A stretch of 64,000 nucleotides of DNA from an uncultured virus (IMG/VR IMGVR_UViG_3300029288_000087) (taxonomy: Duplodnaviria > Heunggongvirae > Uroviricota > Caudoviricetes). The position numbers and the translations under genes were made by a program. This document shows, in pieces, positions 3,015 through 56,386 of this stretch. The stretch lies in IMG/VR virus record IMGVR_UViG_3300029288_000087; one strand, written 5' to 3'. The notes beneath the pieces are model-generated. The model did no database searches. It worked only from the letters and a program-made list of their open reading frames with translations, and was not told where the DNA came from. The first letter of the stretch is position 1. Each line of letters begins with the position of its first letter.

Positions 3015-3704
3015 ATGTTGGGGAACGTCTTGATCTGTGATGTGGAAACGACTGGGTTGGACCCGGACTCGGACTTTGTGATCGAAATCGCCGCGGTCGG
3101 CTACAACGTGCCAAACCATAGTGTCGTCGAAGCATTCTCGTGCGTCGTCAGCTCTACCGACGACAACAAGGCCGAGGCGATCAACCATATTCCATCGGCC
3201 ATCTTGTCGCTCTCCAGTAAGTGGCCAACGGATGTCTGGAACATCGCCAACGCCATGAGCATAGGGTGCGACGCTGTCCTCGCCCACAACGCGTCGTTCG
3301 ATTACCAGTGGGTGGAGAAGACCGTAGCGGAGAGGCTGTACAATCTCCCCTGGATCGACACCTGCGACGGGATCACGTGGCCCAAGCAGGCCAAGCCCGG
3401 CTCCTCGTTGATCTCGCTCGCCCTGGAGCATGGTCTCGCCGTCGTCGATCCTCATCGCGCGCTCTCGGACTGTCTGCTGCTAGCCCGTCTGCTCACGCGT
3501 TGTGCCGAACTCGGCCACGACGTTCAGGCAATGCTCGCCAGGGGGCTGCGCCCACAGACGCTCGTGCAGGCGCTGGTGTCCTTCGAGGAGAGAGACAAGG
3601 CGAAGGAACTTGGCTTTCACTGGGACAGCGCCAACAAGCGATGGATCCGCCGCATGCCCCTTGAGGATTGCGCCGCCCTGCCATTCTCGGTACGACCAGT
3701 CTGA
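3015..3704 (+). CDS. DEDDh 3'-5' exonuclease (DnaQ-like)
   Basis: DVETTG, AHNASFD and HRALSD motifs. Confidence 0.9.
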   Translation: MLGNVLICDVETTGLDPDSDFVIEIAAVGYNVPNHSVVEAFSCVVSSTDDNKAEAINHIPSAILSLSSKWPTDVWNIANAMSIGCDAVLAHNASFDYQWVEKTVAERLYNLPWIDTCDGITWPKQAKPGSSLISLALEHGLAVVDPHRALSDCLLLARLLTRCAELGHDVQAMLARGLRPQTLVQALVSFEERDKAKELGFHWDSANKRWIRRMPLEDCAALPFSVRPV

Positions 3705-4371: not shown

Positions 4372-5243
4372 CCAACGGAAACGTAGAACAGAAGGACTCC
4401 GCCATCACGCTCCTGCGCAAGGACGTGGAATCCCAGATCGAGAGGGCGCGGGCGCTCATCGAGCCTGCGCTGCCGAAGTCGTGTGACTTCAAGCAGCTCG
4501 TTGCCAAGACGCTGGTGGCCATTCAGAGCACGCCCAGCCTCGCGGACACCAACGCCGTCTCGATCTTCTGGTGCTTCGTGCACGCCGCTGAGCTGGGGCT
4601 GTCGCTCGACGTGTCGAGTCAGGAGGCCCACATCATCCCGTTCGAGGACAAGAAGCACGGACGCGGCAAGCGGGCCAAACTCATCACCGGCTACCGCGGC
4701 CTCGTCAAGCTCGCCTTGCAGCATCCGAAGGTGCTCAGTGTCCACGCCAGGGCGGTCTGCGAGAAGGACAAGTTCGAGTACGACGAGGGGTCCACTCCGT
4801 TCGTTGTGCACAAGAGGTTCCTGGGAAGCGATCATCCCGGTGAGGTGATCGCCGCGTATGCGGTCATCAGCCTCCAGAACGGCGGTAGGATCGTCGGTGT
4901 CATGTCCAGGTTCGACGTGGACAAGGTGCGCGCCATGTCCCGCGGGTCGAGCGACCCCGACTCGCCGTGGACGAAGTGGTACGACCAGATGGCGGCGAAG
5001 ACCGTCCTTCGCAACACCCTGAAGCAGAGCCCCAGGTCAGTCGAGGCGGAGAAGGCTCTCGCGCTCGAAGACGCGGCTGAGCAGGGCGTGATCGAGCCCG
5101 GCGAGGAGATCGTCGTGGCCAAGCGCGGCCAGCCAGCCCAGGGACGGGTGAGCAGGATGCGAGGCCGGGTTGCGCAGCAGGCAGAGGCGGAACCGACGAA
5201 CAACGGTCGCGACGAAGAGCCGCCGCCGGATGATCTGCCGTGA
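4368..5243 (+). CDS. recT: RecT-family ssDNA annealing recombinase
   Basis: AELGL, LITGYRGLVKLA, AAYAV and SPWTKWYDQMAAKTVLR motifs; co-located with YqaJ. Confidence 0.9.
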   Translation: MTNGNVEQKDSAITLLRKDVESQIERARALIEPALPKSCDFKQLVAKTLVAIQSTPSLADTNAVSIFWCFVHAAELGLSLDVSSQEAHIIPFEDKKHGRGKRAKLITGYRGLVKLALQHPKVLSVHARAVCEKDKFEYDEGSTPFVVHKRFLGSDHPGEVIAAYAVISLQNGGRIVGVMSRFDVDKVRAMSRGSSDPDSPWTKWYDQMAAKTVLRNTLKQSPRSVEAEKALALEDAAEQGVIEPGEEIVVAKRGQPAQGRVSRMRGRVAQQAEAEPTNNGRDEEPPPDDLP

Positions 5244-7429: not shown

Positions 7430-8490
7430 TTCGGCCCCACGCCGAGCCCCAAGCGCTCGCGGTTGTACTTTGCCTTGGCCTTCTCGCACCAGTCCAGGTG
7501 CTCCAGGTACCAGCGGACGGTGTGGCGTATGTCTTTCTCGAAGTCGCGCTTCGGCAACCACCCCGTATGCCTCCACAGCTTCGATGCTTCGATTGCGTAG
7601 CGAAAGTCGTGCCCCGGGCGATCCGTCACGAACCCGATCAGCCTGCGGTATCCGTTCTGGTTCTCTCGTAGCCAGCTGAGCGCGTCGCAGATCGAATGCA
7701 CGACCTGTAGCGTGTTCCGCTCTTGGCTACTACCAATGTTGTAGACCTCCCCAGGCGTCCCATCGGTCGCCACACGTATGAGCGCTTCGCAGTGGTCGTC
7801 CACATGGATCCAGTCACGCACGTTCATGCCGTTGCCGTAGACCGGGATGGGCTTGCCCTCGATGGCGTTCAAGATCGTGAGCGGGATGAGCTTCTCGGGG
7901 AACTGGTAGGGGCCGTAGTTGTTCGAGCAGTGCGTGATGATCGTCGGCATCCCGTAGGTCTTGTTGTACGCGCGCACGAGGTGGTCCGACGCGGCCTTCG
8001 TCGCTGCGTAGGGTGAGTTGGGAGCATACGGGCTGTTCTCGGTGAACTTCGCGTCATCCATCCCAAGCGACCCGTAGACTTCATCGGTGGAGACGTGGAT
8101 GAATCGGCACGAGCCTGAGCAGCCGCTGCCGCTGCTCCAGTAGTCCTTCACGGCGTTGAGCATCCTCGCTGTGCCCGCAACGTTGGTTGACACGAACGGC
8201 ATGACCCCGTCGATGGATCGGTCCACGTGGGTTTCAGCGGCGAGGTGGAACACGACCGTGGGCTTGAACCACGCAATCTCGTTGTAGAGATTGCCGGTCC
8301 TGATGTCCAGATCCGCAAACTCGAACCGAGGATCTTCAGCCACGTCGGCGAGGTTCTCCATGCTGCCCGCGTAGGTAAGCGCGTCAATGATGTACACGCT
8401 GACCTCGGGCTCCTTGAGCAGCATGCGCACAAGGTTCGATCCGATGAAGCCTGCGCCACCCGTTATGACGTACCTCTTTTCGCCGCTCAC
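7426..8490 (-). CDS. rmlB: dTDP-glucose 4,6-dehydratase
   Basis: TGGAGFIGS, AAETHVDRSI, STDEVYG, YAATK and NNYGPYQFPEKLIP motifs. Confidence 0.97.
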   Translation of the reverse strand: MSGEKRYVITGGAGFIGSNLVRMLLKEPEVSVYIIDALTYAGSMENLADVAEDPRFEFADLDIRTGNLYNEIAWFKPTVVFHLAAETHVDRSIDGVMPFVSTNVAGTARMLNAVKDYWSSGSGCSGSCRFIHVSTDEVYGSLGMDDAKFTENSPYAPNSPYAATKAASDHLVRAYNKTYGMPTIITHCSNNYGPYQFPEKLIPLTILNAIEGKPIPVYGNGMNVRDWIHVDDHCEALIRVATDGTPGEVYNIGSSQERNTLQVVHSICDALSWLRENQNGYRRLIGFVTDRPGHDFRYAIEASKLWRHTGWLPKRDFEKDIRHTVRWYLEHLDWCEKAKAKYNRERLGLGVGPK

Positions 8491-19346: not shown

Positions 19347-21758
19347 CTACTCCTTAGCCGGCTCTTCCGGAGCCGCCTCCGCCTCGGGCTCCTTCTGCTG
19401 CTTGGCGATGAATTCCGCCTGCACCTTCATGAGCACGCGCCACACGTCGTCCAGGTAGCGCTTGCCCTTGCCGGTTGCCAGGACAGTCCCGCTGGTCGCC
19501 GGGTCACTGCGCAGGCTCGCGACAAACCTGTCCTTCTCGATGACCTGGGGAATCATCACGACGGTGCTCTCGCCGTTCTGCTCGATGAATGTCTTGACCA
19601 ACACCTCGGGCGGCACCCTGTGAGAGCACGCCTCCTTGATCGTATTCACGAGCCCAGCAACCTGCTCGCGGTTGATCCCTGGGATCCAGTCGAACGAGGA
19701 CCACGGCTCCTTCTTCGGCGCGACGTTCTGCTTGGCCGCGGGCTGCGACACGGGGGTGTCTGCCGCAACGGCCTGAGCCGCCGTCACAGGCCCCTGCGGA
19801 GCCTGTTCGATGACCACTGGCGGCGGGTACTGGGGCTGCTGCACGGGCTGCTGCGGGGCCTGCCGCATCGGCTGCTGCGTGATGGACGGCTGCGTCATCG
19901 GGTTGAACGGGACCGGAGGCATGCCGGGACTGCGCGACGACATGCGGTTGTGCTCGTCTGCGCTCACCTGCGGCCCCGGCAGGTTGTCGAACGAAGACTG
20001 CACGGCTGGCCCCTCGCTGTCGGCGAACTGCACCCGGTGCACACGCCTGGGCGGAGGCAGCATCTGACGAGCCTGCTGCACGGGAGGCACCTGCTGCACC
20101 TGCACCTGCTGCACAGGAGGACTACCCTTCTGGAGCAAGTCCTTGATCTGTGGGATCAGCGTGTCGGCCTGGGAGATGGCCATGAGGATGGCCTTCTGAT
20201 ACCAAGGCGCGTTCGCCGCAGCCGCCGCCATCGCGGCCTCTTCTGGAGTCGGCCCGCCTTCCTTCTCGTCTGTCGCGATCCCGAGCGCAACGGCGGTCTC
20301 CCGAAGCTCCTGCACCTTGTTCAGAAGCGGCTTGTTCTGCTCCGCGAGGTGGGCGTTGACGAGCTGCGCCTTGCTCTGGAGATCCGCCACCGTCGCGGCA
20401 AGCTGGTTCTGAAGCGCGCGCACCTCGAATCCGTGCGCCGCATCGAGCGTCGTCTTGGTGTTCGTCTCGACCGCCTCGCGCATACGCGTTTCGCGATCGT
20501 GACTGCGCTGGATGTCGTCGAGCCGCTGTTGCCCGATGCGCTGCGCTTCTTCCATCGACCGCTTGTGCTCTTCGCGAAGGTAGCGCTCACGCCGATCGAA
20601 GTCGTCCTTCAGCTCGCGCTCCCGGCGTTCGATGATCGTATCCTTGTCGCGCATGCGATCTTCAAGTGAAGCAACACGGGTCTGCATCTCGGACCGAACG
20701 CGCTCGACCTCGCGCTCCTTCTCTCTCTTCTCGATCTCGATCAGCCGCTCGAACTCCCGCTGCCTCATCTCCATCTCGCGTGCGTGCTGCTCCTGCACCG
20801 CGCGCATGTCATCGGAGTTCGCCCCGCCGCGCACCGACGAGTTGATCAGCGCAACGGCCTTGACCATCTCGACCATGTCGTTGGGCTTCTGGCCGATCTC
20901 GGCGATCTGCCTGCGCATCTCCATCATCTCGGCTTGCTTGGCTTCGAGCTGACGTTCCAGAAGCGCAACTTGCTGCTGCGCCATCTCCTTGGTCGAGTCG
21001 ATCGCGCGCTCCTGCTGACGACCCATCACGCTGAAGACCGTATCGGGCAAGCCCTGCTGAGCCTGCTGCGGCCTGTTTGCCATGCGCTCTGCGAAGCTCA
21101 GAAATGGCGCGTAGTCTTGCGGCTGCTGTTGCTGCGGCATCTGCATGCGCATGCCCGCGCCTCCGTAGGGGCTGCCACCACCCGGGAACGTGAACACCAT
21201 AGGTCCCTCACTACTCTCGCTGTCTGCGATCGGAAGGCTCTGCATGTTGGGATCGACAGGTACGGAGAACTCCGCAACGGCAACATCCACCAGCGCGGGA
21301 GGCCCGCCCATGTTCGAGCTGTCACCTTGCTCCATCACGCCGTAGACCCGGTACTTGTACCCGCCGTAGAGCCGCAAGAACTCCTGCGTGCCGATCATCA
21401 TGTTGTGCATGCCGACGATACCGGAAACGCGCTGGCGCTGCCCCGTGCCGGGATCGAGATGCCACTCGGGCTCGATGCGCTGTACGCGCAGCTTGCCGAC
21501 CTTCCGGAGATCCGGGTACGCGCTGTACATCGTCTCAAGAGATGGGAACTTCGGCACGTTCATGCCGCCGCGGCGACGGCTGATCTCGGCACGCCGCTCG
21601 ACATCCTCCATCGGCGCGCGCGACTCGGGAAGCGATCCCATGTCGATCCCGCCCATCGGATCGTACGAAGTAGCAGCAGGACCGCCTGATCGACGGCGCG
21701 CGGGGAACGGGAGTTCGGGCAGCGGCTGTTCTTCAGCCGTCGTGGGTTCGTCGGCCAT
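19347..21758 (-). CDS. Large (803 aa) coiled-coil, Gln/Pro-rich protein
   Basis: Long E/R-rich coiled coil; PQ-rich linkers; RBS GAGGT. Confidence 0.85.
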   Translation of the reverse strand: MADEPTTAEEQPLPELPFPARRRSGGPAATSYDPMGGIDMGSLPESRAPMEDVERRAEISRRRGGMNVPKFPSLETMYSAYPDLRKVGKLRVQRIEPEWHLDPGTGQRQRVSGIVGMHNMMIGTQEFLRLYGGYKYRVYGVMEQGDSSNMGGPPALVDVAVAEFSVPVDPNMQSLPIADSESSEGPMVFTFPGGGSPYGGAGMRMQMPQQQQPQDYAPFLSFAERMANRPQQAQQGLPDTVFSVMGRQQERAIDSTKEMAQQQVALLERQLEAKQAEMMEMRRQIAEIGQKPNDMVEMVKAVALINSSVRGGANSDDMRAVQEQHAREMEMRQREFERLIEIEKREKEREVERVRSEMQTRVASLEDRMRDKDTIIERRERELKDDFDRRERYLREEHKRSMEEAQRIGQQRLDDIQRSHDRETRMREAVETNTKTTLDAAHGFEVRALQNQLAATVADLQSKAQLVNAHLAEQNKPLLNKVQELRETAVALGIATDEKEGGPTPEEAAMAAAAANAPWYQKAILMAISQADTLIPQIKDLLQKGSPPVQQVQVQQVPPVQQARQMLPPPRRVHRVQFADSEGPAVQSSFDNLPGPQVSADEHNRMSSRSPGMPPVPFNPMTQPSITQQPMRQAPQQPVQQPQYPPPVVIEQAPQGPVTAAQAVAADTPVSQPAAKQNVAPKKEPWSSFDWIPGINREQVAGLVNTIKEACSHRVPPEVLVKTFIEQNGESTVVMIPQVIEKDRFVASLRSDPATSGTVLATGKGKRYLDDVWRVLMKVQAEFIAKQQKEPEAEAAPEEPAKE

Positions 21759-21772
21759 GAGCTACCTCACCT

Positions 21773-21883
21773 GTCGCAGACATCGGCCTGTACGCCGTTG
21801 GTTTTGATAGCTCATCGAGCTTGGCGAATCCGTCATCGAAGCCGTGTTGCAGATATCGGCCTGCGCGCCATTGGTTTCGATCG
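21773..21883 (-). CRISPR. CRISPR-like mini-array 1 (repeat, 35-nt spacer, repeat)
   Basis: Repeats 21773-21810 and 21846-21883 (73-bp period). Spacer 21811-21845 matches 21960-21994 inverted at 30/35. Confidence 0.7.
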
Positions 21884-21910
21884 CTACGGGATCGTCGGCC
21901 ATGATCCACC

Positions 21911-22363
21911 TCAGTTTGGTTCAGGCTCGTCGGGCTCTTCTTCGATGACGAGATCCTTGACACCCTCGATGACAGATTCACCAAGCTCGATGAGATCGGC
22001 GAGCTGCGCAGCGATCGGAAGCCCCTGCTTCTTGGACTCCGCATGCTGCGCCTTGAAAATCTCAACGGCCTTCTCGACGAAGGCGAGGATCTTGTCGGCG
22101 TCTTCCTGTTCGAGCTGGCTCGCGCCTTCGGCCTCTTCGAGATCCGCGATCGCGTCTTCGTGGCGCACAACGGCGGCGGCGCACACTCGCACGTCTTCGG
22201 CCAGCATCTTGAGGTTCGGCAGAAGATCATCCTGGATGAAGTCGTGCAGATCGCGAGACCCCTCGTCGGTCTTCACGTCGTTGTCGATCTTCTTCGCGAG
22301 CTTGTCGAGATTCTCCAGCACCATGTCGATCTTCAGCACATCGCCTTCGGTCTCGTCACTCAT
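21911..22363 (-). CDS. Acidic helical hypothetical protein; its 3' end holds the protospacer of array 1
   Basis: 150-aa ORF with RBS GAGGT. Confidence 0.8.
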   Translation of the reverse strand: MSDETEGDVLKIDMVLENLDKLAKKIDNDVKTDEGSRDLHDFIQDDLLPNLKMLAEDVRVCAAAVVRHEDAIADLEEAEGASQLEQEDADKILAFVEKAVEIFKAQHAESKKQGLPIAAQLADLIELGESVIEGVKDLVIEEEPDEPEPN

Positions 22364-23003
22364 CGGTCACCTCTTGGAACTCATCCTTGTCGAGAACCTT
22401 CTTGCCCGCTTCCACATCTTCCTTCGTCTTGAACATGCGGTAGCCCTTGATCTTGCGCGGAGCCTCGCGATCGCCAGAGCCCGCGCCCTCGACGATGACG
22501 CGCGCCTTGCCGATCTCGATCTTCTCCGCGTCGATCGCGTCCAGCACGTTCGTCGCCGCGGGATCAGGCGGATCGCGGAACTCGCAATCGAAGATGGCCG
22601 AGTCCTTCAGACACATCGCTGCGCCATTGATACCGCGAAGCGCTTCGACGGTGCAGAACCGCTCGATGAGCGCAAGGTCGGGAATGTCCGGGCTGATCAC
22701 GCGCTGCCTCTTGTAGAAGCGGCACTTACCGAGCCGGGTCAACCGGCCCTTCTTTGGATCTGGCTCTTGTTCCAGACACGAGAACGTTTGCGGGCACAGC
22801 GGAGGAGGAAGTGCCTGAGAGAAGGTCCACGGCGGATCCTTCTCGATCGGCATACCGTCCGGTCCGTCTCGGTACTCGGGCTGCGCAGGCCGGAATTGCT
22901 CGAAGATGCTGCCGCCGGGAGTCGGGCTTCCGGTTTCAGTCTCCTCTTCGTCGGCTTGTTCTGCTAGTGTCTCGTCCTGTTCGATCGTGGGGTCATCAGC
23001 CAT
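22356..23003 (-). CDS. Hypothetical Cys-containing protein
   Basis: MADDPT...; leaderless after the promoter at 23011-23039. Confidence 0.8.
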   Translation of the reverse strand: MADDPTIEQDETLAEQADEEETETGSPTPGGSIFEQFRPAQPEYRDGPDGMPIEKDPPWTFSQALPPPLCPQTFSCLEQEPDPKKGRLTRLGKCRFYKRQRVISPDIPDLALIERFCTVEALRGINGAAMCLKDSAIFDCEFRDPPDPAATNVLDAIDAEKIEIGKARVIVEGAGSGDREAPRKIKGYRMFKTKEDVEAGKKVLDKDEFQEVTDE

Positions 23004-23010
23004 GACGCAC

Positions 23011-23039
23011 GTTGTCGCAGGAAACGCACAGCGTGTCAA
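23011..23039 (-). promoter_or_regulatory. Sigma70-type promoter overlapped by the protospacer of array 2
   Basis: TTGACA-17-GACAAC-7-ATG. Confidence 0.6.
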
Positions 23040-23045
23040 CGACGA

Positions 23046-23372
23046 TTAGGGGGTGCCTGTTTTCCCGGAGGTTGCGGATATCGGCCCGCACGCCGTTGGT
23101 TGATCGCCATGATCCTCGTTGATACGTCGCACGATACCTGCGAGTTGCGGATATCGGCCCGCACGCCGTTGGTTCTTGAGGCGCAGTATCCTCTTCGGGC
23201 GATAGCCGCAGCACAGATCGCACACGAGGAACGAGGGTTCCTTCACGGTCGAGCCCTTCAGATAGGGACCAGCGTAGAGCGTGGGGACGACGCGCCCGCA
23301 CCACATGCACGGGCGATCGGGCACAACGTCGAAAGGTTCCCACTGCACGGGGATTTTGGGCCAGTGGCTCAT
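23046..23372 (-). CDS. Small Zn-finger-like protein whose 3' end runs through mini-array 2
   Basis: CMWC...CDLC; promoter TTGCCA-17-TACCAT at 23411-23383. Confidence 0.55.
   Translation of the reverse strand: MSHWPKIPVQWEPFDVVPDRPCMWCGRVVPTLYAGPYLKGSTVKEPSFLVCDLCCGYRPKRILRLKNQRRAGRYPQLAGIVRRINEDHGDQPTACGPISATSGKTGTP
23071..23181 (-). CRISPR. CRISPR-like mini-array 2 (repeat, 37-nt spacer, repeat)
   Basis: Identical 31-bp cores at 23071 and 23144 (73-bp period). Spacer 23107-23143 matches 23015-23051 inverted at 27/37. Confidence 0.7.
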
Positions 23373-23552
23373 GATGGGCCAGATGGTATCGCAGGGTCGT
23401 ATAGTTGGCAAGGGGATGTGATGACAAATAGAGGACGCGCGGCACCAAGTGAGGGGGGGAGGACTCGGTCTGCCGCGCGCCAGATTTCGGCCCAAGGTCG
23501 CGATGCGTCTTCGTGGGCCTGAACGGTAGGGTATGCGCAACGGCCCCGCCCG

Positions 23553-23759
23553 TCAACTGTCGTCCACTTCCCACGTCCGAACAATGGTGCTGCCGCAGGG
23601 GCAGTCCCGGTACTCCATCGCTTCGCCCCAGTCGAATACCGTGTAGCCGACCAAGTGGAGCTTCTGCCACTGGGCTTCGGTGTAGAGCTTGCCGCACGGG
23701 CACCGCTTGGGCATCGGGTCCAGGAGCTTGCCGAGGCGGATTGCGGGTGTCGTTGCCAT
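23553..23759 (-). CDS. Small CPCG...CPCG Zn-ribbon protein
   Basis: Two CPCG motifs. Confidence 0.65.
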   Translation of the reverse strand: MATTPAIRLGKLLDPMPKRCPCGKLYTEAQWQKLHLVGYTVFDWGEAMEYRDCPCGSTIVRTWEVDDS

Positions 23760-23765
23760 CTTCGA

Positions 23766-24338
23766 TCAGCCAAAGCGTCCGAGCGAGAACCCGGCTGTCC
23801 CCGCACGACGCCCCTCCGCGATGTCGGCAAGCGAGCAGAACCCCAGAAATCTCGTATCTACGCGGTGATCCGGGACTCGTTTGACAACCGCTCCGCGCTC
23901 CTGCGCGACCTCCGGGCTTGTCACGTCCACGTCGCCGTTCTGCGCGCCAATGCACGCTGCTCGCCCTTCGGGCGGGTACCACTTCTCGACCAGCATGATG
24001 TGGACGGCCTTCTGTGCGCTTCCGAAGAGGGCAACGTCCCCTGGGGTGGGCTCCACAACCTGCGGAAGAGCATGCCAGATCGCGTTCGAGTTCATCTCCA
24101 TCTCGAACCCGGCAGCGCGCGCGCAGTCGATGATGAGCCCCGAGCAGTCCAGGCCCCACGAGCTTACGCCCGCGTGCCCTCCGCCCCACTGGTAGAGCGT
24201 CCCAGCCTTCACATGCTCATCGGCGCGAGCAAGCATTGCCTTGCGCCACGGGGCCAGATTGGAGGCTCCCACGCGGCTCGCGTACACGATCGCTACGATG
24301 GCTGCGATGCCGAGAGCCCACGGAAGCGCGGGGTTCAT
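23766..24338 (-). CDS. NlpC/P60 peptidoglycan endopeptidase with N-terminal TM
   Basis: YQWGG...GLDCSGL...PGDVALFG...HIML. Confidence 0.88.
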   Translation of the reverse strand: MNPALPWALGIAAIVAIVYASRVGASNLAPWRKAMLARADEHVKAGTLYQWGGGHAGVSSWGLDCSGLIIDCARAAGFEMEMNSNAIWHALPQVVEPTPGDVALFGSAQKAVHIMLVEKWYPPEGRAACIGAQNGDVDVTSPEVAQERGAVVKRVPDHRVDTRFLGFCSLADIAEGRRAGTAGFSLGRFG

Positions 24339-24648: not shown

Positions 24649-25086
24649 TCAAGCCACCAACTTGAGCCGCGCCCTGAACAGCCGGTTCTTGGTGGTCGAG
24701 TCGTTGGCCGCATCGGTCCCAAGCACGGCATCGACGATGGCGCTCCGATCCACAACGGGCATGGCGTCAACCTGCTTCAACACGCTAAGCAGTCTCGCCC
24801 GCGCCTCGATGAGGCTGTCGATGGTGCAGCTGGTCTCGAACTCGGGGACCACAACGGCGGCATGTCGGCAGCGGTCCCGCTTCACTTCGAGGCACTTCAT
24901 GATGACGATGTGGTGCAGCCACGTGCTGACCTTGCACCTGCCATCGAAGGGAGCCGTGAGCGCCTTGATGAACGCCCACTGCACAATGTCCTCCGCATCC
25001 TCGCGGCTGGCCATGATGCGCTGCGCGGCAGCGACGAGCCGCGCCCGGTGCGCCCTGCATTCCCGATCCAACGCCTGCCTGTCCAT
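24649..25086 (-). CDS. ECF-type RNA polymerase sigma factor
   Basis: EDAEDIVQWAFIKA...FDGRCKVSTWLHHI (region 2); TKNRLFRARLKL (region 4 end). Confidence 0.8.
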   Translation of the reverse strand: MDRQALDRECRAHRARLVAAAQRIMASREDAEDIVQWAFIKALTAPFDGRCKVSTWLHHIVIMKCLEVKRDRCRHAAVVVPEFETSCTIDSLIEARARLLSVLKQVDAMPVVDRSAIVDAVLGTDAANDSTTKNRLFRARLKLVA

Positions 25087-25631
25087 CGGACAACCGATGG
25101 TAAGCACGCGCCGCGCCGCTTGCAAGAGTCGCCGCGCGCATGGATACATGATCGAGCGTTCCGACGTTCCTACGATCCATATCCTCTCATACGAGGTCGC
25201 GTCAGCGTTGTGGTAAATGCAAGCTCAACCCAAGCGCCTTCCGATCTCGCAGGCGAGGATCATGCTTTAGCGTTCTGGGTGAAGCAGAGGCTTCGATCCA
25301 ACCATCCCGCTGAAGCGGCGTCCTCCCCTTCCGATGCCATCCTCTCGGAACGAGGATACACATATCACCAACTGATCCAGATCCCGATTCGAGGAAACAC
25401 CTCGGTCTCATCCAAACGTTCGTACCCTACGGGCACTCACTGGGAACACGAAGCGTTATGGCGAATCGGGAAATACGCCACGACGTAAGGTAGATCCCTA
25501 TTAGGCCAGAAAATGGATGGGGTCCACAAGTGAAAAGTGAACGTAGCGTGCCACGATTTCAAAATAGGTAGCATAATGTGAGCGCTATACACACAAAGCG
25601 CGCGACGGATTGGTTGATAGCTGGAAGCGTT

Positions 25632-30848: not shown

Positions 30849-30886
30849 CCCGTTGACACCCGATTTCAAGATCGTATCATCTCGCA

Positions 30887-53811: not shown

Positions 53812-53841
53812 TTGACACCGTTGCGGATCTTGCCGTAGACT
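53812..53841 (+). promoter_or_regulatory. Promoter upstream of the core/capsid operon
   Basis: TTGACA-18-TAGACT. Confidence 0.6.
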
Positions 53842-53913: not shown

Positions 53914-53944
53914 TTCCAACGGCGTGCAGGCCGATATCTGCAAT
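53914..53944 (+). repeat. Solo fifth copy of the mini-array repeat
   Basis: CCAACGGCGTGCAGGCCGATATCTGCAA, 26/28 identical to the array-2 core. Confidence 0.85.
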
Positions 53945-53953
53945 CATCACCCG

Positions 53954-56386
53954 ATGGCACGAGGAAGGATTTTCCGGATCACGAAGGCCCAGGCAAAGGC
54001 CTACGAAATCCTGGATCCGCCCTCGACGCGCTCGGCCCGCCCGAACCCAGGCGTCACGGCCATCATGGGGATCACCAACGGTCGCGGAGCTGCGAAGCGC
54101 GGGGCTCGCAAGGGCAAGGCTCGCAAGTCGGTCCGCATGCTCGGCGGCATCAGCTGCCCCAAGACGGCTCCGAAGAAGCACCGCATGGCAGGGGCGACGA
54201 AGCGCTCAGACTACGCGCTGCCGCAGTGCTTCCACTACCCGGTGCGCACGCGCGGCAAGGCTTCCGTCTTGAAGATCCGGCGAGCCCTGACCCGCTACGG
54301 CACGCACAAGAGCAGGTACTCGCCCGCCGTCCGCAGGCAGATCGAGCGCGGGATCGCGAAGGCTGCGAAAGAAGCCGGGATGACGAGTCCCGTGGCGATG
54401 AAGTACCGCAAGAAGTTCGCACTGGCGAATGCAAAAGGAGAAAGCCCCATGTTCGTCGTCCCCAATGCCGCGCGCAAGCGCGCAAGGCGCAAGTCCAAGT
54501 CGCGCAAGCTGTCCCCGGCTCATGCCTTCTTCTTGTACCCGACCACCAAGGGCAAGATCGGCGCGTCGGCGTCCCCGAACCGCAAGCGCAAGGCGCGCAA
54601 GGCCCGGAAGGGTGCTCGCAAGCTGAAGTTTGGCTCGCCCGCATGGCAGAAGAAGTTCAACCCGCTGTACGGCGGCAAGGGCAAGACGCGCAAGGGCAAG
54701 AAGTCGACTGCCAAGCGTCGGACCGCGCGTCGGATGGTTACGTCGGGCGTTCGTCGCGTGACCGTTCGTCGTGGCAAGGGCAAGCGCCGCAGCGGTCTGA
54801 GCGTCGCTCTGCGCAACATGTCGATCCTTCCTGCGGTGCCGAACAAGCGTCGCCGCTCGACCAAGAAGTACAGCGCCGCGTGGCATCGCAAGATGACGCA
54901 TGCGGTCGCGAACCGCTATCGTCGGCGCGCTCGGCGCAACGCAGAGGGCGAGGGGATCTTCTTCCCGGGCGAGGGCGGAGGTTCGTTCATGGACGAGCCC
55001 TCCACCATCATGTCCGAGGCGCAGGAGAAGAAGCTCGCTGCTGCCGCCACTGCCGAAGGCATCGCTCAAGACATGTTCAAGACTCAGGCGGATTTCGACG
55101 CGTGGTTCGCGAACATGTACAAGAGCAAGACGTTCCGCAAGTTCTACATGTCATTCAGACGAAGGCGCACTGCGCTCTCCAAGCGAGGTAGGAAGATGGC
55201 AACCAGGAAGAAGGGCAAGAAGGCTGCGGGCCGCAAGCCTCGCAAGGGCAAGAAGGCTCGCAAGGCACGCAAGGGAACCCGCAAGCTGAAGTTCGGCTCG
55301 CCCGCATGGCGCAAGAAGTACGCGCGCAAGATCGCGGCGGGTCGGCGCAAGGCGAAGCGGCACGGCACGCGCAAGGCTGCGAAGCGTCGCAAGAGCGGCT
55401 CGCGCAGCAAGCGCCGGGTCACGCGTCGTCGAGGCACCGCACGTCGTCGGAGCGCAGCGCGCCGCCGCACGGGTGGTCGTAGGCTCAAGTTCGGCTCGAA
55501 GGCGTACAACAAGAAGTACGCGGCCAAGCGCAAGCGCAACCTTCGGTCGGCGAAGCGTCACGGCAAGCGCAGGGCTCGCCGGAACTTCAGCTTCCGTGCC
55601 ATCCCGAACCAGCTGCTCATGCGCGTCAAGGCCATGGCGATCCCTGGGCTCATCGCGCTCGGTGGCTACGCCATCCATCGCGTTGTGACCAAGGTTCTGT
55701 CCAAGGCCATCGGCGGCACGGTCACGAGCTACGCCGAACCCCTGAGCGGGCTCGTCGCGATCGCGGCTGGCACCTGGGCGGTTGGCAAGTTCCTGCCGCA
55801 GCACTCTCATGCTGCGATCATGGGCATGGCCGTCAGCTTCGGCGCGTTGCTCCTCAAGAGCTTCCTGCCCGACGTTGCGACCTACCTGGGCATGGGCTCG
55901 GTCGGATCGCAGAACCAGCGCGTGCGCTGGGGCATGCAGGGACCGGAGTTCATGCAGGCGGCTGCTGGCCCGGAGTTCATGCAGGCGGCTGCTGGCCCGG
56001 GGTTCCTCCAGGCGGCTGCTGACTACTACCAGCCCGCGAGCGGGATCGGCGAGTACGTCAGCGATGGTTCGCTCTCTCCCGTGAGCGACTTCGGCGAGTA
56101 CGTCGCGAGCAATCTCGACGTGAGCGGCTGGGGTGACTACGAGGTGAGCACCCAGTACCAGACCGGCGCGGACGGCTACGGAGCCATCAACGACGGGATC
56201 CAGCCGGGCGGCAATCTCGATCAGCAGTTCAACATCATGGAAGCGGCGGCGGGGCTCGGTCTGAACAGCCCCGGCAGCTCGTCCACCTACGTCCCGCACG
56301 AGGGCATGCGCAACGTGGCCTCTGCGGAATCGAGCGACAGCTCGGGCGTGTTCGATGTCGGCGGAGGCAACGGCGTCCTGGGCTGA
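53954..56386 (+). CDS. Very Arg/Lys-rich protein with TM block and acidic Gly-rich tail; putative DNA-condensing core (poly)protein
   Basis: About 540 aa basic region with repeated PN/AN/RN and LKFGS motifs, then 3 hydrophobic helices, GPEFMQAAA x3 and GEY repeats; start codon uncertain. Confidence 0.75.
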   Translation: MARGRIFRITKAQAKAYEILDPPSTRSARPNPGVTAIMGITNGRGAAKRGARKGKARKSVRMLGGISCPKTAPKKHRMAGATKRSDYALPQCFHYPVRTRGKASVLKIRRALTRYGTHKSRYSPAVRRQIERGIAKAAKEAGMTSPVAMKYRKKFALANAKGESPMFVVPNAARKRARRKSKSRKLSPAHAFFLYPTTKGKIGASASPNRKRKARKARKGARKLKFGSPAWQKKFNPLYGGKGKTRKGKKSTAKRRTARRMVTSGVRRVTVRRGKGKRRSGLSVALRNMSILPAVPNKRRRSTKKYSAAWHRKMTHAVANRYRRRARRNAEGEGIFFPGEGGGSFMDEPSTIMSEAQEKKLAAAATAEGIAQDMFKTQADFDAWFANMYKSKTFRKFYMSFRRRRTALSKRGRKMATRKKGKKAAGRKPRKGKKARKARKGTRKLKFGSPAWRKKYARKIAAGRRKAKRHGTRKAAKRRKSGSRSKRRVTRRRGTARRRSAARRRTGGRRLKFGSKAYNKKYAAKRKRNLRSAKRHGKRRARRNFSFRAIPNQLLMRVKAMAIPGLIALGGYAIHRVVTKVLSKAIGGTVTSYAEPLSGLVAIAAGTWAVGKFLPQHSHAAIMGMAVSFGALLLKSFLPDVATYLGMGSVGSQNQRVRWGMQGPEFMQAAAGPEFMQAAAGPGFLQAAADYYQPASGIGEYVSDGSLSPVSDFGEYVASNLDVSGWGDYEVSTQYQTGADGYGAINDGIQPGGNLDQQFNIMEAAAGLGLNSPGSSSTYVPHEGMRNVASAESSDSSGVFDVGGGNGVLG
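55940..56020 (+). repeat. 27-bp tandem repeat x3 (GPEFMQAAA)
   Basis: GGMCCGGAGTTCATGCAGGCGGCTGCT repeated; third copy degenerate. Confidence 0.9.

Follow-up and report, generated by a model that had tools for sequence, protein, structure and literature searches.

Two mini-arrays among leftward phage genes

The window, that is, the whole stretch of DNA analysed here (64,000 nt), is the first 64 kb of C3, a 134,037-bp contig in an assembly (G000) of 205 contigs and 3.57 Mb. Searches of the window and contig proteins against Pfam and PHROGs reveal a phage-like gene content. Besides a sigma-70 region-2 protein (Table 1), the window encodes an NlpC/P60 protein, an AEP primase, an AAA_25 helicase, an SF2 helicase, RecT, YqaJ, and an SSB-like protein; many other window proteins have no family match. 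From ~26 kb the genes run leftward, and from 26.6 kb they run rightward. C3 may be less than the whole genome, since a search for terminal repeats on it found none.

A profile search finds 5 copies of a 31-nt repeat in the 3.57-Mb assembly (E <= 3.7e-7; the next match has E = 0.71), all of them within the window and each in the orientation of the flanking genes. Four make up two mini-arrays, each with a period of exactly 73 nt, and the fifth is solitary. In mini-array 2, 42 nt separate the two 31-nt repeats. The period places the copies in different reading frames, which rules out a protein repeat. An Rfam search of 21600-23500 gave no match at E <= 1, either to a curated CRISPR-DR family or to any other.

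Table 1. Features of the locus and of related loci (window coordinates unless another contig or locus is named)
Feature	Position	Strand	Remarks
803-aa gene	ATG 21758		starts MADEP
Downstream repeat, mini-array 1	21773..21803	-	more degenerate; 14 nt before ATG 21758 of the 803-aa gene
Spacer 1, 37 nt	21809..21845	-	
Upstream repeat, mini-array 1	21846..21876	-	87% identical to the array 2 repeat
150-aa gene	21911-22363	-	3' end holds the spacer 1 target
Protospacer-like site, spacer 1	21960..21996	+	31/37; inside gene 21911-22363(-); TTG at 21957-21959
215-aa gene	22356..23003	-	first behind the promoter-like site; no family match in Pfam, PHROGs, or PADLOC
Promoter-like TTGACA-17-GACAAC	23011..23039	-	TTGACA 23039-23034, GACAAC 23016-23011; 7 nt before ATG 23003
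TTG, candidate PAM	23012..23014	+	directly 5' of the spacer 2 target; inside the -10-like hexamer of the other strand
Protospacer-like site, spacer 2	23015..23051	+	27/37; nt 1-7 perfect
Downstream repeat, mini-array 2	23071..23101	-	identical to the upstream copy
5 nt after spacer 2	23102-23106	-	degenerate 5' end of the next repeat, taking the 36-nt repeat of L187
Spacer 2, 37 nt	23107..23143	-	target homology stops at spacer nt 37
Upstream repeat, mini-array 2	23144..23174	-	31 nt conserved; sense reading AACCAACGGCGTGCGGGCCGATATCCGCAAC; pseudoknot handle
Promoter-like TTGCCA-17-TACCAT	23383..23411	-	from the consensus scan; upstream of ORF 23046-23372 and mini-array 2
Sigma-70 region-2 protein	24649-25107		family match
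Solitary repeat copy	53914..53944	+	co-directional with its flanking genes; ATG 53954 follows after 9 nt
810-codon ORF	ATG 53954		behind the solitary repeat
Further handles just before ATGs	L133:2500-2523, 3495-3518, 4783-4806		as at window 53914-53944 and 21773-21803
IS607-type TnpB	C3:125324-126643		Pfam, PADLOC
C12 effector and array	L199 6496-8869		array adjoins the gene without a gap

A search of IMG/VR found no relatives of the genes for the 215-aa and 150-aa proteins, and among 93 genomes of the phylum G000 itself gave the only match. The start of the 803-aa gene, with its ribosome-binding site and first codons (21733-21772), is duplicated across mini-array 1 (21890-21913; 20/24 identical), suggesting that this array was inserted into the start of the gene with a duplication that leaves ~30 nt on both sides. 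The duplicated gene start opens a 46-codon ORF beginning MADDP, and the 215-aa protein begins MADDP as well. Mini-array 2 lies within a 108-codon ORF with CxxC...CxxCC motifs (23046-23372, minus strand), which stays open across spacer 2 and the two repeats; the 3' end of this ORF may have received the array as an insertion or may be extended by it.

Farther to the right, the 810-codon ORF contains several Lys/Arg/Gly-rich direct repeats (54588-55517) and three tandem 27-nt units (55940-56020). Beyond the window, C3:68429-72334 (L195:5429-9334) is a 1301-aa ORF whose sole family match is a phage-integrase domain at residues 299-514. The sequence CTTGACACC occurs near three handles (window 53812-53841, 21957-21962). 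One copy of it, TTGACA-18-TAGACT, precedes the solitary repeat by 100 nt; behind this copy comes a stretch, GTTGCGGAT, that resembles the antisense start of the repeat.

The repeat family, its RNA handle, and its effectors

Metagenome contigs were scanned with the core of the repeat, and two of the loci obtained show what the window repeat belongs to. L187 has 9 matches to the repeat pattern at a spacing of ~54-75 nt with unique spacers between them; its repeat is 36 nt long, and the 3' 31 nt of it match the window repeat. L160 holds the leader side of a related array, namely a leader and 2 repeats. The 3' 24-25 nt of the repeat are found as exact single copies in two IMG/VR viruses and in several other metagenome contigs, and solitary copies outside the window lie in L132, L133, L157-L159, L182, and L183. 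In solitary copies, conservation is limited to the 3' 25 nt of the repeat, which hints at a handle that would need crRNA only and would be free of a tracrRNA. When one genome for each of 185,579 species was searched with the repeat pattern, 20 single matches were obtained, none of them in an array; among 22 genomes of the order, the repeat is present only in G000. Thus the repeat has been seen beside an effector in a phage-like contig and not, as would be expected of virus-borne mini-arrays, as the repeat of a host.

The conserved part of the repeat is predicted to fold. In 23 copies (alignment A1) two short helices are kept: helix 1, CGNN...NNCG around a GUGCAG loop, and helix 2, GCRG...CYGC, in which the loop pairs with the following bases to give a pseudoknot that is followed by AAC and then by the spacer. 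Within A1, some variants of which were gathered with a filter demanding pairing, 99.5% of the cells pair, and 4 of the 8 pairs vary on both sides (14 cells). The covariation score is reached by none of 500 shuffles, and slid controls pair at only 6.5-48%. The members from L188, which were picked by tandem position, display four different stem versions by themselves. A U-G pair in one of the window handle copies agrees with the sense orientation. The orientation assigned to the crRNA rests on the leader and degenerate last repeat of L160 and L187, on co-directional effectors in L188 and C12, and on the conservation of the 3' part of the repeat. Type V crRNAs carry their handle 5' of the guide, and the layout in the window is alike.

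The window repeats are real CRISPR repeats, as is indicated by the multi-repeat array in L187, the effector-adjacent array in L188, and the covarying handle. An earlier thought, that solitary copies just before ATGs represent a motif for a sigma factor or for a phage RNAP promoter, was dropped once the tandem array and the covarying helices were recognized. Placement before ATGs is nonetheless recurrent: among 13 handles examined that are solitary or stand last in an array, 5 are followed after 2-14 nt by the ATG of an ORF with at least 50 codons. At such a handle the guide part would be the gene's own ribosome-binding and start region. A TnpB-like logic for the solitary copies, in which a TAM and the flank specify the target, was rejected; only the copy at 53914 has TTG just upstream, and the other upstream flanks examined have none.

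L188 is part of a 100-kb contig, three genes of which have homologues in the window (52.4-54 kb). The locus contains a 484-aa ORF and then, within 74 nt, 6-7 diverged repeats. The 484-aa protein has Cas12f1-like TNB, OrfB_IS605, and HTH_OrfB domains, and its best relatives of solved structure are Cas12f/TnpB-type chains. Its motifs GIDVG, IRIERL, CxxC..CxxC, and RDVNAARNI align to conserved positions of the RuvC domain and zinc finger, with D/E/D aligned. The repeats of this array (L188:2178-2576) differ from one another by compensatory stem changes (CGAG/CTCG, CGAT/ATCG, CGTG/CACG, and CGGC/GCCG). Such variation within an array is unusual for CRISPR and suggests guides that have long been fixed.

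C12, another phage-like contig of G000, encodes a 447-aa Cas12f/TnpB-like effector together with an array of 15 copies of a different 36-nt repeat. The first spacer of that array is a diverged inverted copy (23/24 plus an indel) of 7608-7642, within the effector gene itself. The C12 effector was rejected as the partner of the window arrays; the repeat of its array differs, and no protein is common to C12 and C3 at E < 1e-5. Nor did the C12 array appear to target C3: among the matches listed, those of its spacers to C3 were short and at chance level.

An effector with RuvC and TNB zinc finger, as in type V-F-like (Cas12f/TnpB-derived) CRISPR, thus lies beside an array in L188 and C12, but not in the window. 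No cas gene was found near the two mini-arrays (Pfam, PADLOC) or elsewhere on C3 (Pfam with 149 proteins and 18 window ORFs, PADLOC with 148 proteins), where the only candidate is the IS607-type TnpB, ~100 kb away. A tblastn search with the L188 effector gave no match on C3 and matched C12 at 30% identity. The IS607-type pair, inside C3:125324-127050 (L198:5324-7050), consists of a MerR-HTH serine recombinase and a 439-aa TnpB with D/E/D motifs. This TnpB was rejected as the effector, having no similarity to that of L188 and no handle nearby. The two IMG/VR viruses with solitary handles, whose genomes are estimated to be 90% and 100% complete, likewise lack an effector. The mini-arrays probably belong to a hypercompact type V (Cas12f/TnpB-like) family that was found only in phage-like contigs.

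Spacers that resemble neighbouring sequence

The sequence-only reading held that spacer 2 overlies the promoter element TTGACA-17-GACAAC, that the 7 PAM-proximal bases match perfectly and the distal ones do not, and that the spacer carries a variant -35, TTGATA. All three observations are borne out: the element lies on the minus strand, guide nt 1-7 are perfect within a match having 10 mismatches in 37, and TTGATA stands in the spacer at the place aligned with the resident TTGACA. With the crRNA sense taken as the minus strand and compared to the plus strand, the match is 29/42 when extended to 23056. Among 7,126,874 positions (both strands, all 205 contigs) only spacer 2 itself and this site reach 27/37, and one further position reaches 26/37. 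From these position counts, a match of this strength within ~130 nt of the spacer would be expected by chance at ~1e-4. The -35 region and the bases beside the -10 are best kept, and the stretch between them less so. As a guide, spacer 2 would pair with the resident site at 14 of the first 20 positions, 7 of them contiguous.

Whether this site is indeed the promoter of the operon that begins at 23003, as had also been proposed, is less certain. In favour are the TTGACA hexamer, the gap, and the position of the ATG. The start has a leaderless geometry with no Shine-Dalgarno sequence, and a leaderless promoter is plausible there because an intergenic TTGACA-16-TATCAT, 6 nt from an ATG at 30853, shares this geometry. 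Against it, the -10 is weak: GACAAC shares 3 of its 6 bases with TATAAT and does not end in T, which is why the element is absent from the consensus promoter scan. TTGACA hexamers number 12 in the window. The scan did list TTGCCA-17-TACCAT, a possible source of the array 2 transcript; it listed no terminator-like site between 23383 and 23003, and read-through from this element into the operon is possible.

For spacer 1 the best non-self match in the whole assembly lies within the 150-aa gene. Five of the 6 mismatches fall on third codon positions (P = 0.018); guide nt 3, 4, and 6 are among the 6. The target stretch reads DLIELGESVIEG in the resident allele and ELIELGESVIEA in the spacer allele. 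Since spacers are under no coding constraint, this third-position pattern indicates that spacer 1 and its resident counterpart are alleles of a single gene. Either a relative was the source of the spacer, or the resident escaped through changes that are mostly silent. BLASTP finds 3 relatives of the 150-aa protein (69-89% identity), which are polymorphic in the target 1 stretch, one of them having Ala at its Gly position.

The two targets have several properties in common. Both lie 51-115 nt from their own arrays. In both, similarity goes no further than nt 37, which is how long the spacers would be with a 36-nt repeat like that of L187. TTG directly precedes both, and given its frequency of 0.0128 per position, two such occurrences by chance have a probability of 1.6e-4. 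The candidate 5' T-rich PAM or TAM is drawn from these two near-matches, both of which carry 5'-TTG; no independent protospacer was found. As in known virus-borne mini-arrays, the window arrays have 1-2 spacers between bona fide repeats in a viral genome, and the resident loci are mismatched to their own spacers (10/37 for spacer 2 and 6/37 for spacer 1).

Close relatives of this phage do exist, as seen from two sediment runs in which short, low-depth contigs align to portions of 20820-22311 and 24031-24200, differing at 4-22 positions per 141-289 nt. These contigs reach the target sites only at 21985-21996, where one relative has the resident allele, and none of them covers 22624-23991, the array 2 region. 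The divergence of spacer 2 (10/37) exceeds the 2-8% seen in coding pieces of the relatives. Exact matches to spacer 1 or 2 were sought in IMG/VR and number zero; BLAST against GenBank phages gave no match, and 505 kb of other loci gave chance-level matches only. For 30 guides taken from 10 related loci, no match lies nearby, and against G000 and the other loci they returned nothing beyond duplicate loci, except one 17-nt match.

Proposed action of the guides against relatives, and other readings

The sequence-only reading had left a choice between CRISPRi-like autoregulation of the leftward operon and attack on the promoter of a sister virus. The second fits better, given the full-length match, the pattern in array 1, the existence of relatives, and a search of C3 that found no cognate effector; the first is weaker. 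We give about an even chance to the view that the guides act against close relatives, as a weapon between viruses. It is favoured by the full-length similarity, by retention of the candidate PAM at each site, by a divergence of the coding type in spacer 1, and by the closeness of targets to arrays. From this arrangement we infer expression, processing, a PAM, an effector in trans, and cutting of relatives, in the following way. The arrays are probably transcribed with the leftward operon, and each crRNA would consist of the 3' part of the repeat, as a pseudoknot handle ending in AAC, and a 37-nt guide. The guides would be alleles of neighbouring sequence, spacer 2 of the region before the 215-aa gene and spacer 1 of the 3' end of the 150-aa gene. 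A perfect copy flanked by TTG, as in a close relative, would then be cut by an effector acting in trans, whose source would be the host or a co-resident phage, and the resident copies would be spared because of their 10 and 6 mismatches. At target 2 the intact TTG and 7 PAM-proximal bases run counter to what is expected of an escape; promoter constraint may explain their retention, which is also what a regulator would show. The partial match of spacer 2 to a promoter is nonetheless better read as shared ancestry with the resident allele than as a regulatory operator.

A related but unlikely view is that the mini-arrays are cassettes for RNA-guided homing, or marker exclusion, whose guide is aimed at the allele next to the cassette in relatives without it. 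A TnpB-like nuclease acting in trans would cut the rival allele during co-infection, and recombinational repair would copy the cassette along with the linked resistant allele into the rival, much as with phage homing endonucleases and TnpB-assisted retention of transposons. Such homing would explain the distance of 51-115 nt between target and array, the self-derived first spacer of C12, and the duplicated start of the 803-aa gene.

Among the alternatives to guides that act on relatives, autoregulation is unlikely. It proposes that the spacer 2 crRNA and a Cas12f-like effector bind the -35/-10 region without cutting and lower transcription of the operon at 23003. It is kept alive because TTG and the 7-nt PAM-proximal stretch are intact on a promoter-like site; the match is significant, and the site has a leaderless geometry like that at 30853. 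For Cas12-type seeds, however, 14 matched positions of 20 are poor for stable binding, and only 7 pairs are contiguous. The similarity also continues at lower density to nt 37, as in diverged homologues and unlike a seed-only operator, and mini-array 1 has the same design against a coding sequence, with mismatches within the first guide positions (nt 3, 4, and 6). The -10 is weak and unlisted, and the upstream promoter-like site may read through; no effector was found on C3, and 0 of 30 guides in 10 related loci have a match nearby. A precedent does exist in regulatory mini-arrays of the CreR/CreA types, known to match adjacent promoters in part (10.1101/2024.10.29.618823).

Three further readings would give the spacers no present function as guides. 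It is improbable that the arrays are frozen relics, left by past self-targeting or as recombination debris and now neutral. The many mismatches, a broken stem pair in the downstream repeat of array 1, and the flanking copies of the 803-aa gene start, which suggest insertion by recombination, would agree with this, but the repeats of array 2 are identical, 4 of 5 handles keep both helices (one by a compensatory change), and the 73-nt period is exact in both arrays. About equally improbable is that the repeats are RNA decoys, Racr-like, which titrate a Cas12f-like effector belonging to the host or to a competing phage, whatever the spacer contains. Solitary repeat units acting as RNA anti-CRISPRs have been described (PMC10651486; PMC11656645). 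C3 has 5 handles and no effector, and the two IMG/VR viruses with solitary handles have none either; yet a decoy leaves it unexplained that the spacers are full-length, diverged copies of TTG-flanked neighbouring sequence, although it could still hold for 53914-53944. Finally, it is hardly credible that spacer and inverted copy form a long hairpin in the operon transcript for processing or attenuation. In favour, the two copies lie close together in inverted orientation, spacer 2 is paired with its downstream copy in the minimum-energy fold, and in the sense RNA G-U pairs would form at 4 of the 6 mismatches of spacer 1. However, the fold energy of 22990-23200(-) is ordinary (z = -0.16; 86 of 200 shuffles fold as well), and neither the TTG flanks nor the codon-position pattern is predicted by a hairpin.

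If the guides do act against relatives, virus-versus-virus CRISPR would extend from archaeal viruses that use a host type I system to phage-like elements that use a phage-carried TnpB-like nuclease, with the carrier keeping only a 31-nt RNA handle and a guide. The work also provides a compact, covariation-supported crRNA handle for a nuclease of ~480 aa and raises a testable idea of why the targets of viral mini-arrays adjoin the arrays.

The closest parallel is with the archaeal viruses SPV1 and SPV2. They are described as having mini-arrays without cas genes, spacers against close relatives, and targets near the arrays, with point mutations or deletions in the orthologous loci of the carrier (Medvedeva et al. 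2019, PMC6858448). The window phage resembles them in having one spacer between two repeats, no cas genes, near targets, and a mismatched locus of its own. It differs in that SPV1 and SPV2 use host type I repeats and host-like leaders, whereas the repeat family here is found only in phage-like contigs, beside a Cas12f/TnpB-like gene, and in that no perfectly matching relative was found for the window spacers in the searches above.

CreR/CreA and the viral crlRNAs (Cracr; 10.1101/2024.10.29.618823) have, like mini-array 2, two repeats around a spacer that in part resembles a nearby promoter region with a flanking PAM. They lie in, beside, or hijack cas loci and target cas promoters or the promoters of linked toxins with a match limited to the seed. 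Here there is no cas locus, and the target precedes a phage operon that starts with the 215-aa gene, which has no family match. The PAM-proximal partial match is represented by TTG and 7 contiguous pairs; similarity, however, spans the whole spacer to nt 37 (27/37).

Stand-alone repeats in effector-less viral genomes, such as that at 53914-53944, recall the Racrs (PMC10651486). Of the 13 handles of the window family, 5 stand 2-14 nt ahead of an ATG that opens an ORF of at least 50 codons, and Racr activity is no more than a candidate role for them. To our knowledge, placement next to an ATG has not been described for Racrs.

Hypercompact type V effectors encoded by phages, Cas12f/Cas14-like and derived from TnpB, have been reported (PMC12607003). 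L188 and C12 are like them, each having a 447-484-aa protein with RuvC and TNB zinc finger directly before an array; the window, unlike them, has the RNA parts only. In the dCas12f-sigmaE system, a nuclease-dead Cas12f is found beside an ECF sigma factor, and transcription starts 46 bp downstream of the TAM, in the direction of the regulated gene (PMC12259090). Transcription of this kind was rejected for the window: the L188 effector keeps D/E/D, the sigma-70 gene is not beside an effector, and with either TTG as the TAM, transcription from such a start would run rightward, antisense to the operon.
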